The position numbers and the translations under genes were made by a program. 64,000 nt of DNA from Eledone cirrhosa (lineage: Eukaryota), in NCBI GenBank assembly GCA_964016885.1, contig OZ024741.1, positions 137,578,001 to 137,642,000 on the forward strand. Reading direction: 5' to 3'. The notes below the pieces were generated by a model, which was given only the letters and a program-made list of their open reading frames with translations, had not been told where the DNA came from and did not search any database. Below are positions 35,677 to 60,034 of the stretch, piece by piece (position 1 is the stretch's first letter; the number at the start of each line of letters is the position of its first letter).

Positions 35677-36326
35677 TATATATATATATATATATATCTT
35701 TACATTCTTAGGTAGAAGCATTTTCGCCACAAATATTTGTTGAAACATAATCAGTGTATAGTTCCTACCTTCTTGCACTCACAGTTCGACCATATTCTAG
35801 TCTAATGAAAACGATTTAATAAGAACGAAATTTGTTGGCTTAAAACAGTTTCCTACCACTCCATAGTTTAAAAATGTAAAAAAATACTTTCATCACTTTA
35901 GACTTTAAATCTTGCTATTGTTGGCTTCTCAGTATCGGAACATCACTAAAAGGAGTTCGGTTTTAAATTGTGATCATATTCTCAGTTGATTGAATTATGT
36001 GTGTGTTTATAGAGAAAAAGAAGGTGAAAGAATAAACATGTAGATACACATAAAGAAAAGCATGCGAACTCTAAGAAGCTTTGAAACATCTCACTTACAG
36101 AAAACATTGATTTTTTAACAAATACATTTAACTGTTATGATTATCTAACATCGATTTAATATAGTATATATATATATATATATATATATATATATATATA
36201 TATATATATATATATATATATATATATATATATATATATATATATATATATATATACACACACACACATATATATATAATAATAATAATAATAATAATAA
36301 TAATAATAATAATAATAATAATAATA

Positions 36327-36592
36327 GTGATCCCGATTGTCATAGGCGCACTGGGGACTATCTCAAAAAGTTTCCAGGGATGGTTAAAGAAAATTGGCCC
36401 ATTCACGCTTTTTGGAACGCTTCAAAAGGCATGCTTGCTGGGAACAGCAAGAACCCTCCGATACGTCCTGAATATCTGAGGCTGCAGGTAGTGACTTGAT
36501 ATTCATTTCAACAAACTTTCCAGTTAACTAACATCAATGACTGAGATTCAAAGAGTAATAACAATAATAATAATAATAACAATAATAATAAT
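36327..36592 (+). mobile_element. Severely 5'-truncated R4/Dong-like family A copy within (AAT)n
   Basis: Near-identical to 45537-45763. (AAT)n lies upstream at 36277-36326 and as a tail at 36556-36592. Confidence 0.9.
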
Positions 36593-36901
36593 GTTTTCTT
36601 TATTAACCTCAAGGGTTTACATGAAGTAGACATTAAGGACAGTACACGACAATACAGGACGGTACAAATGGGCATTTCTGCGTGTAAAAAAAAACAGAGG
36701 ATGTAATAAAATAACAAAGAAAAATTCCCCAATAGGGGGGAGACTTCCGAGGGACATTTGTGGATAAAGCCCATTAAAAGACCACAGTGACCCTGACCAC
36801 CAGGGCAAGTGCCCTCTTCCAGTTTTCCACCTTTAATTTACACACACATACTCAGAGTAGGCCCATTCACTCGGGGCATACTTGCTTCTCTCACCCATCT
36901 T

Positions 36902-39900
36902 TCAACAAAATGCTGGGAAGAGAGCCACTTCCCTCTCTACCCTGATTTTCCTTTTCAAATGAAATTTGAAAAAGTTAATCAGGGCATCACCGAAGAGGTA
37001 AGTGCTCGTCTTCAGCCCTTTCAAACCTGTCCACCATACTATCTCTTTCGCCATGGCCACCAGACAGATAAAAACTGTCTGCCCTTCCCGGCTAAAGGAA
37101 GAGGGCGGGGAAATCCTCACGATGGACTCAACTGATAGCTGGATCCGTCCTACACGTGACAGCAGGTGTTCGACATAAACCCACAAGTCAGCAATGCTCG
37201 GACACTGGATGAGTGCGTGCAGGACGGTTTCGTCGCCCTGCGCGCATCTCGGACATTCCCGGCTGACGGCACCTCCATGGCTGTAGAGTTTATCTCGAAC
37301 TGGCAAAGCTCCCCGGTAGCACTGCCAGGCCAGGGATTTCTGGAAGTTGTCCATAGGCCCTGGCCCGAAAGTCCTTGCGAAGAGATTGGCTAGTTGATTT
37401 TCGACGACGCCTAGAGTTTCTCCAAGTACGTCGTCGCTCTTCCCCTCCACTAATCGTCTATAGAACGCCAAGGTGGAGTTTCCACCGATCACATTGCCTG
37501 ATTGGTCGAGGGCTGTGAGCGCCTGAAGACATTCCAGACTCCAAGCGCTCCCTCTCGGTCTTCGCTTGACCCAGGACTGCAGCTCCGTCAAGGAGACGAG
37601 CTGGGGAAAGACGTGTCTAGCAAACGGCGACCACACCTGATCACCGTCGAGGAAGAGGTGGAGATGTCGTAGCCTGAGCGCGTGTCTGCGCATCATCAGC
37701 CACGGCATTCCCAGCCCTCCACGTAGCGGGTGTTGACAGCAGATGGACCGCCTGATCATCGGAGCGCGTCCCTTCCACAAAAAGCGAAAGAGCAAATGCT
37801 CCAGCACAGTCAGGCGGGGCTTAGGACAAGATACGATGGTCAGGCGGTAGTAGATGACGGACGCGATGTACGCGTTAGCCACCTCCGCTCGACCTTTCAG
37901 GGATAGCTTCCTCTCCGCCCATTTCTGGGTGAGAGAAGCCACCCTGCTCGTCACCTCGTCCCAGTTTTTGTCCGTCTGGAGGTCCGGACCGAACCAGACC
38001 CCTAGCAATTTAACCGGTCCGTCCGTACAGCGCCCGACGACGCTGTTAGACGGCATGGACCTGCCTCTCCAGGTGCCGAGCTGCAGGCCCACTGACTTTT
38101 CCTGGTTGATCATTGCTCCTGTCACCGCTTCGTATTCTCTTAGTGTAGTGCCGATCGCCTCGATATGTTTGGCGTTCGACACCACTACGGTGACATCGGC
38201 CGCATATGCTGACACGGATCTTCCGCATCCTAGTTCGCGCGGGAAACCCCTCAACGTCTCCAGTTTGTGCAGTAATGGCTCGAGAGTCAATAAGTACAAG
38301 AGGGACGAGAGGGGACATCCTTGGCGGACCGAGCGCATGATGTTGAACGGTTCCGAAAGGTGACCGTTCACTCTCACCACAGAGCAGATGTCGCTGTGCA
38401 TGGCAGCGATCCAGCCTCTGAAGACGGGCCCAAAGCCAGCCGCCCTCAGGACTGCCGCTAGGTAACGATGGTCGACCCTATCGAAAGCTTTCGACTGATC
38501 TAAATTTATCAAAGACCCACCCGTGCCAGGTTCCCTAGCTACCCTCTCTACGATGTATGGCATGAGGTGGATGTTGTCGTGGATGGATCTGTCGAGAATG
38601 GCGCATGTCTGCGCCTCTCCCACCAGACCACCAACGACAAGCGCCAACCTCTTTGCTAGCACCTTGGCCAAAATCTTGAACTCTGTGTTTAGCAGAGTTA
38701 TGGGCCTAAAATTATCTATGTTATCCCCCTTGTTCGGATCCTTTCTCAGCAGCGCCACCGCTCCTCGGCTCATAGAGCTGGGAATTCTCCCGTTCTGTTG
38801 CCAGTTACAGTAGACGTCCGCCAAGAGGCCTCCGAACAAGTCTGGCATTTGTACGTAAAGTTCATAGGGCAGACCATCCAAACCAGGTGATTTACTCCTT
38901 GTGCAGCCAGTCATTGCCTCCCGTACTTTAGCGGCTGTTATCGGCTTTTCGCAACACTCCGCCTCAGTGGCCGAGAGCCGCGGCAGTCCGTCGAGGTAGA
39001 CACTAAAGTCCATCCCTCGATCCGGCCCGCCGCTGCCCTCGAACAGTTGAGCGAAGTGTCGCTGAAAAGCTTCACACATTTGACCGGGATCGAGTAGCAC
39101 ACGCCCGTCGTGGTCCACCAAAGACCGGATCGTGGCTTTGTTGCCACGACGCGCCTCCGCCACTCGGGCCCATTGAACGGCTTTCGTCCCCTCGTGTCTG
39201 AGAGCACGCACCCTAGCTCTGACAACGCAGCCTTCGTGCTTTGCATTGAAGAATTGGTCAAGGGCCAATTTCGCCGCAAGTACATCGGTCGCGATGCCTT
39301 TGCAAAGCGCCTCGTCTAATTTTCTAACTAATTCTCCCTCTGCTCTATTTTTCTCTATTGCTAAAGCCTTACTAAACCTAATGGACTCTATTCTAATTGC
39401 TCTTTTCAGAGCAAACCACCACTTGTTGTTGACGATGGCACCCGTCAACGCCCGCTTAACTAGTTCGCTAATCCGGTCTCTGTAGGCCTTGCGCGCTGGT
39501 AAGGACGCGTTTAGCTTCCAGTAGCCGGGTCCTCGTCTATGAAGCCTATTTAAGTCAAGCACACAGATCACAAATTTGTGGTCTGTGTAGCTGACTATCT
39601 TGAATTGTAGACAGCCTATGCTAGACCTATCTATTTCCCTACAAAATACTCTATCTAGATATGATCTGCATGACCCTATGCGATTTGTCCAAGTCCACAT
39701 TGGTACATTCGGGAAATCCAATCGGTACCTGTCAGACATTTCAAAATGCCTGAGCAGGTTGGTGAGACTCTTGCACCCTCCTCCCCTATCCACTAATCCC
39801 ACACAGTCCCAGCGTGCATCTAAGATCCCGTTCCAGTCGCCCACTAACACTAAAGAGTGGGACGTTCCAAGAAAGGTCTCCAGACGCCGGAAGAAATCAG

Positions 39901-59478: not shown

Positions 59479-59814
59479 GTGGCACCTCAAGGCCGTTACA
59501 ATACCAGTGATTGTTGATGACGGGAATGATCAAGAAAGGAACAGAACAATATTTGCGAATGATTCCTGGTTTACCCTCTCTGCACGAGGTGAAAAAAATT
59601 GTTGTGACTGGTACTGCACACGTATTGAGAAGAGCACTATCTCTGTAACATTGATATCCCACCTTGTATTTACATATGCATATGAAAAATACTGTTTATT
59701 TATTTATTTTTTTAAAAATTATAATCAATGCGCTGTATTAACTGGCTTACCAATGCACACTGTGAATTTATTTGCCCCAGGTGTCAGGAAGACACTCGGC
59801 ATATATCTCAGAAA
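59479..59814 (+). pseudogene. 3' fragment of a third R4/Dong-like family (C)
   Basis: WHLKAVTIPVIV..GMIKKGTEQYLRMIPGLPSLHEVKKIVVTGTAHVLRRALSL* (stop 59646-59648) parallels the family B C terminus. The 3'UTR is different. Confidence 0.8.
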
Positions 59815-59815
59815 C

Positions 59816-60010
59816 AATAATTGTTTCTACGTTTGGCACAAGGCCAGCAATTATTCCAGTGCATTACTGGTACTTTATTTTATCGACCCCGTAAGGATGA
59901 AAGGCAAAGTTAACCTCGGCGGGATTTGAACTCAGACCATAAAGGGCCGTAACTCTTTGCTGCAAAGCATGGCGTCCGACCCTCTACCGATACTGCCAAT
60001 CCACCGCCTT
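59816..60010 (-). mobile_element. Full-length tRNA-derived SINE flanked by (AAT)n
   Basis: Minus strand AAGGCGGTGGATTGGCAGTATCGGTAG..GAGTTCAAATCCCGCC..GTAGAAACAATTATT. Confidence 0.88.
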
Positions 60011-60034
60011 TAATAATAATAATAATAATGTTTA

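Follow-up and report, generated by a model that had tools for sequence, protein, structure and literature searches.

Arrays of oppositely oriented RLE-type and Tx1-like LINEs on an (AAT)n microsatellite of Eledone cirrhosa

Introduction

A stretch of 64,000 nucleotides from Eledone cirrhosa (assembly GCA_964016885.1, contig OZ024741.1, positions 137,578,001 to 137,642,000; hereafter the window) carries a 23.7-kb array of retrotransposons in which strand follows class. Seven copies of long interspersed elements (LINEs) of the restriction-like endonuclease (RLE) type read on the + strand. Two LINEs of the apurinic/apyrimidinic endonuclease (APE) type and three short interspersed elements (SINEs) read on the - strand. 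All 11 AAT-strand runs of at least four units detected in the window by repeat scan fall within the array (36276-60028). Why should the two classes face opposite ways along one microsatellite? A first-pass annotation of the window proposed that two endonuclease types had converged on opposite strands of the repeat and that each insertion regenerates the target, so that the array extends itself. The analysis described here supports this interpretation. Judging from their insertion junctions, RLE-type and APE-type LINEs probably target the same (AAT)n on opposite strands. The phenomenon is genome-scale, with many polarised arrays, and is not local to the window.

Results

Tracts on the 5′ side of insertions

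Exact 3′-end patterns matched the 3.0-Gb genome 5201 times for RLE family A, 2321 times for RLE family B, 7570 times for the Tx1-like family Tx1a, 2948 times for Tx1b-type ends and 58,894 times for the SINE. A CR1-like LINE with 7572 pattern matches served as control, since the pattern of an RTE-like fragment matched in the window only and was unusable for this purpose; a Tx1a 5′ pattern was likewise confined to the window. Thirty loci per search and 80 stretches of about 10 kb were merged into 168 segments (1.12 Mb, 627 annotated elements). The tract in the expected orientation was defined as AAT or AAG for RLE copies and as ATT or CTT for Tx1 copies.

Sequence on the 5′ side of an insertion has no template in the RNA tail, and a tract there therefore separates targeting from a templated tail. 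Seed copies carried a 3′ tract in 67/75 cases for A, 30/30 for B and 64/74 for Tx1a. Where the 5′ junction was visible, a tract preceded it in 38/59 copies of A, 14/14 of B and 39/56 of Tx1a, and only one of the 129 junctions adjoined a tract of the wrong strand. Both Tx1a proportions lie above the target-specificity rule of more than 20% of flanks used in PMC4494074. All 58 full-length Tx1 5′ ends, belonging to four 5′ variants, follow (ATT)n, nearly all of them as ATT|G, although four of the 58 are reference copies whose ends were set at the tract by the analyst. Full-length RLE ends follow (AAT)n in 8/9 cases, mostly as TAA|G. By comparison, an AAT/ATT tract lies upstream of 19 of 5000 random non-element positions. 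In the CR1-like control, 20 of 30 copies end in ATT tails whereas 0/20 show a 5′ tract, a clear difference from A, B and Tx1a (Fisher p 1e-7, 7e-10 and 1e-8, respectively). The CR1 pattern is that of a templated tail only. Random insertion with AAT as a mere tail, the case that the first-pass annotation had raised against itself, is thus the behaviour of the control and not that of the array families.

In two other samples, AAT runs precede 5′-truncated B ends in 53 and 52 raw reads. In contigs of a related organism B, C (the third RLE family), Tx1b and the SINE are deeply covered and A hardly at all, depth here not being copy number. Some junctions have (AAG)n/(CTT)n in place of (AAT)n/(ATT)n, with unchanged polarity (loci L053, L057, L093, L095, L113 and L114). 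At L099-L100 short Tx1a copies are inserted at ATTATAT in a minisatellite of about 36 bp, and their tail is one ATT unit.

Probable positions of the nicks

The SINE gives the most precise view of the target. Its 3′ end is fixed and is followed by ATTAT, positions 1-5 being conserved in 97-106 of 107 copies each. Informative target duplications were found in 35 of the 107 copies. They measure 8-21 bp (median 15) and start at ATTAT, mismatched controls giving 49/2119 (2.3%). The base before the duplication is T in 17 cases, C in 14 and A in 4 (T or C in 31/35). Given target-primed reverse transcription, this register places the first nick at 5′-ATAAT^R on the AAT strand, with a duplication of about 15 bp. 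A nick at a T^purine step is typical of APE enzymes such as that of L1. At the 3′ ends of Tx1 copies the junction reads C|ATTATT in 110-119 of 120 copies per position, and the last 30 nt of the SINE resemble Tx1b and Tx1c 3′ ends (shuffle p 0.0006 and 0/5000) and not RLE ends. Because the SINE combines a Tx1-like 3′ end with the same junction, Tx1 enzymes are the likely source of its nick. The common 3′ end, the target register and the L1-type duplication together suggest that Tx1-like LINEs mobilise the SINE, and we infer by extension that the Tx1 partners also nick the AAT strand. About 10 of 30 Tx1b-type 3′ ends lie directly before a SINE of the same orientation (L233-L262).

In family B, the 3′ junction reads G|TAA in 40/42 anchored copies, which implies RLE priming on the TTA strand. 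Taken with the TAA|G junction on the 5′ side, the RLE nick would lie on the TTA strand.

Orientation and growth of the arrays

Among neighbours joined by a tract, 239 pairs were concordant with this polarity and 9 discordant; for RLE-Tx1 pairs the two elements were opposite in 93 cases and not in one. The bias also appears from listed coordinates alone, as the first-pass annotation led one to expect. Over 0-45.4 Mb of contig C1, 75 of 183 consecutive 3′ ends lie at most 10 kb apart, for 7 expected under uniform spacing, and 72 of these 75 pairs are concordant. The CR1 control has a polarity of 4:3, and 2 of 98 CR1 copies lie within 10 kb of an RLE or Tx1 end.

The relative ages of neighbours indicate how such arrays are built. 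Of 36 tail-to-tail pairs of an RLE and a Tx1a copy, 12 have the RLE as the younger member and 16 the Tx1a. Either class can be the younger, so that each invades the tract of the other. The upstream RLE copy was the younger in 22 cases against 7, a count open to seed-choice bias. Where a 5′ tract exists, the median number of units left on each side is 8-10, and both flanks hold at least four units in 41/52 copies of A, 26/28 of B and 43/49 of Tx1a. One target thus becomes two in 110 of 129 copies, in agreement with the regeneration of the target that had been claimed. When long tracts were sampled directly, 29/30 adjoined these elements, 17 of them an RLE/Tx1 LINE and 8 a CR1 3′ end (scored by eye, several loci lying in one array). 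Arrays of 32 kb and of 23 kb or more match that of the window in size. The 32-kb array (C1 55.42-55.46 Mb, L138-L141) contains a tandem of five young, full-length Tx1-like copies, both frames being open in four, and an exactly duplicated 812-bp B fragment. Among the CR1-like copies (L203, L206, L221-L223, L226, L228, L230 and L263-L292), one tail is adjoined by an A copy.

Some head-to-head neighbours lack a tract altogether. Fusions of a 5′-truncated Tx1 element with an RLE element occur in the window (55505-55506) and at L035, L044, L047, L048 and L052. Co-insertion of both elements at one break was considered for these. Ages agree in just two of the six datable pairs, and sequential insertion followed by deletion at the 5′ junction is therefore preferred. 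Raw-read coverage over the window fusion is thin (2+2 reads in one sample).

Competing explanations

Several observations weigh against dual targeting of opposite strands. The argument is built on insertion junctions. The copies examined were the first listed on contig C1, over about its first 65 Mb, which is a list order and not a random genome sample; the pattern used for direct sampling of long tracts favours Tx1/SINE-type ends, and ages were read from the distance to the nearest neighbour within a small sample. Raw reads aligned to the array gave a family-level signal and no empty-site allele. Tx1b-type seeds, which are older copies with boundaries set by a different method from that used for A, B and Tx1a, have ATT tails in 22/30 cases and 5′ tracts in 4/15. 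The SINE, which the first-pass annotation grouped with the Tx1 families on the - strand, sits in a tract in just 3 of 27 seeds; of the [C/T]ATTAT sites in the sampled flanks, 6% lie in tracts. Since the two rates are close, the SINE contributes only passively to the polarity: it is specific for the ATTAT pentamer rather than for the tract, and SINEs occupy 5 of 30 CR1 tails. Finally, no tract is seen at the 5′ junction of 21/59 A and 16/56 Tx1a copies, many of them with long tails, and the tails of family A open with imperfect units specific to each subfamily.

These last two points would fit a mechanism in which weakly specific endonucleases nick DNA and a (UAA)n or (AUU)n RNA tail pairs with the complementary strand at the nick, the tail itself setting target and polarity. 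The A copies without a 5′ tract still have tails of median 9 units, and the subfamily-specific first units mean that the A tail is at least partly templated, so that RNA-DNA pairing may set the strand. As a general explanation we regard tail-guided priming as unlikely. CR1-like copies carry ATT tails as well, yet they show neither 5′ tracts nor clustering with the arrays; ATTAT itself lies inside the SINE duplications, and Tx1a copies off the tract have one ATT unit only.

The strong clustering and the length of the arrays (23-32 kb) could also reflect wide insertion with retention in neutral or silenced regions, for example a PIWI-interacting RNA (piRNA) cluster, where polarity would result from selection on the direction of transcription. 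This is very improbable, because such a regional trap leaves unexplained both the base-exact ATT|G junctions of full-length Tx1 copies and the solitary copies found in tracts, and CR1 copies on the same contig have no polarity.

Duplication within arrays is observed, as a minor process. The nearest neighbour lies in the same segment for 9 of 286 copies (1.4 expected), which include the 812-bp B pair at 100% identity and count against growth by insertion alone; a duplicated B+Tx1 unit in the 32-kb array and a 371-bp Tx1 tandem are of the same kind. It is nevertheless hardly credible that a few junction-containing units, duplicated in tandem or as segments, account for most array growth, and for the window this is largely refuted: the nearest relative lies elsewhere for 277/286 copies, every window copy differs in truncation point and age, and the tandem full-length Tx1 copies are 98.5-99.0% identical to each other against 98.5-98.9% to dispersed ones. 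The idea of a self-extending array therefore holds as regards repeated insertion, and is amended in that a minority of growth is by local duplication and that the locus is one of many.

Organisation of the window array

The order and strands of the elements reported by the first-pass annotation were upheld by sequence, repeat scan, self-BLAST and Pfam. All tracts below are given on the + strand. The left edge is an (AAT)17 tract (36276..36326, repeat scan) adjoining a (TA)n run. It is followed by the 5′-truncated 3′ end of a first family A copy (A1, 36326..36553, +, self-BLAST and annotation), whose tail lies in a tract common to A1 and Tx1a (36554..36592, sequence and repeat scan). Tx1a is a full-length Tx1-like LINE (36593..42443, -) identified from its open reading frames (ORFs) and Pfam; its 5′ end is in the position of that of other full-length copies. 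ORF1 spans about 42233-40764 and ORF2 spans 40258-36902, the latter with APE, reverse transcriptase (RT) and zf-RVT domains. Head-to-head with Tx1a, across an (AAT)20 tract (42444..42503, repeat scan), stands A2 (42504..45763, +), a copy of a young subfamily whose ORF is open to 45689 and encodes RT, CCHC and a PD-(D/E)xK-type end; its last 700 bp match another sampled copy at 100%. A tract between the A2 tail and the 5′ side of B1 (45764..45807, sequence and repeat scan) leads to B1 (45808..50736, +), a full-length family B copy with its ORF split by a frameshift and a stop (46943-48241 and 48154-50262). The interval 45808-46940, left as a gap in the first-pass annotation, proved to be the 5′ untranslated region (UTR) of this copy; other full-length A and B copies have the same 5′ end. 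A SINE-like 53-bp piece within B1 (46646-46698) reads +. It lies in a stretch 98% identical to another B copy, and is therefore part of B and not an exception to the polarity.

The B1 tail, (TAA)7 (50737..50758, repeat scan), adjoins 70 bp from the interior of family A that lack a 3′ end and are counted with A3 (50759..50828, +, self-BLAST and annotation). A 5′-truncated SINE (50829..50938, -, self-BLAST) and then a (TAA)4 tract (50939..50949, repeat scan) separate this fragment from the main part of A3. This part (50950..53480, +, self-BLAST) has an internal duplication of about 300 bp and meets the 5′-truncated Tx1b, a member of the second Tx1-like family (53499..55505, -, self-BLAST and Pfam), tail-to-tail on a common tract (53481..53498, repeat scan). 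B2 (55506..57436, +, sequence and self-BLAST) is fused head-to-head to Tx1b and ends in degenerate AAT (57437..57466, sequence). The next copy, A4 (57467..59242, +), is older, at 7% from its nearest sampled copy, and has a tract in common with a SINE, (AAC)n(AAT)20 (59243..59313, repeat scan). This SINE is 5′-truncated (59314..59474, -, self-BLAST). The remaining elements are the 3′ end of an RLE copy of family C (59479..59808, +), which is about 65% identical to B in DNA, and a full-length SINE with a 3′ end like those of Tx1 (59816..60010, -). The right edge is (TAA)6 (60011..60028, repeat scan).

Tail-to-tail neighbours thus do lie on one common tract at all three places where this had been stated. 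Joining by (AAT)n, claimed for the array as a whole, holds for most junctions, the exceptions being Tx1b/B2 (55505/55506), with no tract, and SINE/C (59475-59478) and the C tail, with 1-2 units. The nearest sampled relatives of the window copies diverge from them by 0-10%, and none lies in the window.

Outside the array, several repeated or inverted segments of about 600-750 bp with short ATT runs lie to the left (30600-35700), and an imperfect inverted repeat of 280 bp resembling a miniature inverted-repeat transposable element lies directly to the right (60035-60313). The window also contains a long compound repeat block of (CTA)/(CAT)/(CACCAT)/(AGT) (8860-11200) and, after a (TA)n run, an old RT-encoding fragment (63350-64000), which we take to be RTE-like; the pattern made from it found no close copy beyond the window.

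Protein make-up of the elements

Families A, B and C encode an RT (RVT_1), a CCHC knuckle and a PD-(D/E)xK-type end, and neither Pfam (no Exo_endo_phos) nor the translations revealed an APE. The CCHC and RPD...D...K motifs are visible in the translation, while the match to the restriction endonuclease profile is weak (E 0.3). The best solved relative is the R2 protein (E 3e-30, against 2e-13 for L1). Protein identity between A and B is 40% in the RT and C-terminal region, and that between A and C 38-39%. The 5′ UTRs of A and B have about 480 bp in common at 84% identity despite this protein distance. Conversely, the nearest solved relative of Tx1a ORF2 is human L1 ORF2p (E 4e-49, against 5e-19 for R2). 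Tx1a and Tx1b are 75% identical in DNA (self-BLAST). The frames of the window Tx1a are open but one catalytic Asp of the RT motif is replaced; in a sister subfamily with another 5′ half, several copies at 98.5-99% identity have both frames open. A CX2CX4HX4C knuckle was seen by eye in one Tx1-like ORF1 variant, without a Pfam call.

No named Dong, R4 or Tx1 reference occurs among the 120 listed homologues, the 10 clusters and the atlas matches. The elements are Dong/R4-like and Tx1-like by architecture, target and motifs; for the RLE families, motif resemblance and the absence of N-terminal C2H2 fingers, both read by eye, point to the R4 clade. A metagenome scan returned no Tx1a relatives.

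Modules appear to be exchanged between Tx1-like elements, the 3′ part of Tx1a-type ORF2 being joined to at least three different 5′ UTR/ORF1 halves, all starting ATT|G (L138 compared with window 40300-42443). Full-length RLE and Tx1 5′ ends have a GCTC...GTAAG-like motif in common, 25-45 nt in and followed by an AT-rich run (window 45808-45860 and 42400-42443; L138). It may be an internal promoter element or a splice donor. When a home-made descriptor of hepatitis delta virus-like ribozymes was applied to 10 RLE 5′ ends, one fitted, and only weakly; Rfam gave no match. No Rfam tRNA match was found between 34000 and 62000 of the window for a tRNA-derived SINE head.

Discussion

The junctions support a probable convergence of two endonuclease types on opposite strands of one repeat. 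In the mechanism we propose, (AAT)n would act as a tandem row of ATAAT^R nick sites for the Tx1-type enzyme, and RLE and APE enzymes would nick opposite strands of the tract to prime reverse transcription, which is the likely reason for the fixed opposite orientation of the classes. Each insertion would cut the tract into two, each part still of 8-10 units, so that the target doubles and arrays grow by repeated independent insertions over time. The starting tracts probably come from the (ATT)n tails of CR1-like LINEs, which insert at random, and occasional local duplication and 5′-junction deletions would reshape the arrays. A wider scenario is unlikely but can be stated: CR1 would seed the tracts, RLE and APE lineages would have adapted independently to their two strands, the SINE would ride along, and the arrays would form thousands of mutual-silencing traps. 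Every array runs in the sense direction of one class and against that of the other; transcription continuing out of either class would therefore give antisense RNA or piRNA against its rival.

The RLE families resemble Dong, a member of the R4 clade known from Bombyx mori and, as DongAg and DongBg, from the snail Biomphalaria, for which the passages available from PMC3812793 give a TAA microsatellite target. The B. mori Dong junction primer has the register TAA|G (excerpt of PMC3774820). Families A-C likewise insert in (TAA)n in the TAA orientation with a TAA|G 5′ junction, and have a single ORF with RT, CCHC and a restriction-like end. They differ from Dong in that an APE-type class occupies the opposite strand of the target common to all three families, and in their assembly into arrays of several families. 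The LINE groups with recent activity in Octopus vulgaris include Dong-R4 and L1-Tx1 (excerpt of PMC13282606); passages of cephalopod repeat papers describe Dong-R4, L1-Tx1 and CR1 as abundant and, within those passages, mention neither targets nor nesting.

Microsatellite targets are known for Tx1 elements, namely (TC)n for Kibi, (TTC)n for Koshi and (TTCC)n/(TTTC)n in crocodilians (PMC4494074, in the parts available), and an excerpt of PMC10088271 places Tx1-1_ACar in telomeric repeats. The present elements agree with Tx1 in their two ORFs, APE-RT-zinc finger ORF2, L1-group affinity and microsatellite target, and a SINE with the 3′ end and target of a LINE recalls SINEU/Tx1-Mar (same parts of PMC4494074). 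They differ from the families listed there by their (ATT)n target, which is the repeat of the RLE families on the opposite strand, and by at least three 5′/ORF1 variants on related ORF2s. A functional parallel is offered by TRAS and SART of Bombyx, which insert into one telomeric repeat in opposite orientations and form arrays (excerpt of PMC10088271), their insertion site being determined by the endonuclease (excerpt of PMC1919474). Those elements are both R1-clade APE LINEs at telomeres, whereas here the nuclease folds are unrelated and the arrays are interstitial and dispersed. The arrays lie at 1-65 Mb within a 443-Mb contig and one partner is RLE-type, which sets them apart from TRAS/SART as a group, although the two systems work alike. 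SaTar elements of guayule and rice also form non-nested linear arrays of unrelated elements by microsatellite targeting (PMC5907723, in part); they are non-autonomous Mutator-like DNA transposons, and the available passages state no strand polarity by class. The literature covered contained no report of an (ATT)n-targeting Tx1 element or of RLE and APE elements on one repeat; Repbase Reports and subscription journals were outside this scope, and single family entries may exist there.

Dispersed polarised arrays with a Tx1-like lineage on the target of Dong extend established target-specific LINE biology. They offer a natural pair of unrelated nucleases on the opposite strands of one 3-bp repeat, for which junctions number in the thousands and intact young Tx1-like copies exist. 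The respective parts of the enzyme and of RNA-tail pairing in LINE target specificity could be tested directly on one oligonucleotide. The AAT microsatellite markers of this genome would mostly be LINE junctions, which calls for caution in their use. More generally, the arrays suggest in concrete terms how transposon hotspots may form and where most long (AAT)n loci of such genomes come from.

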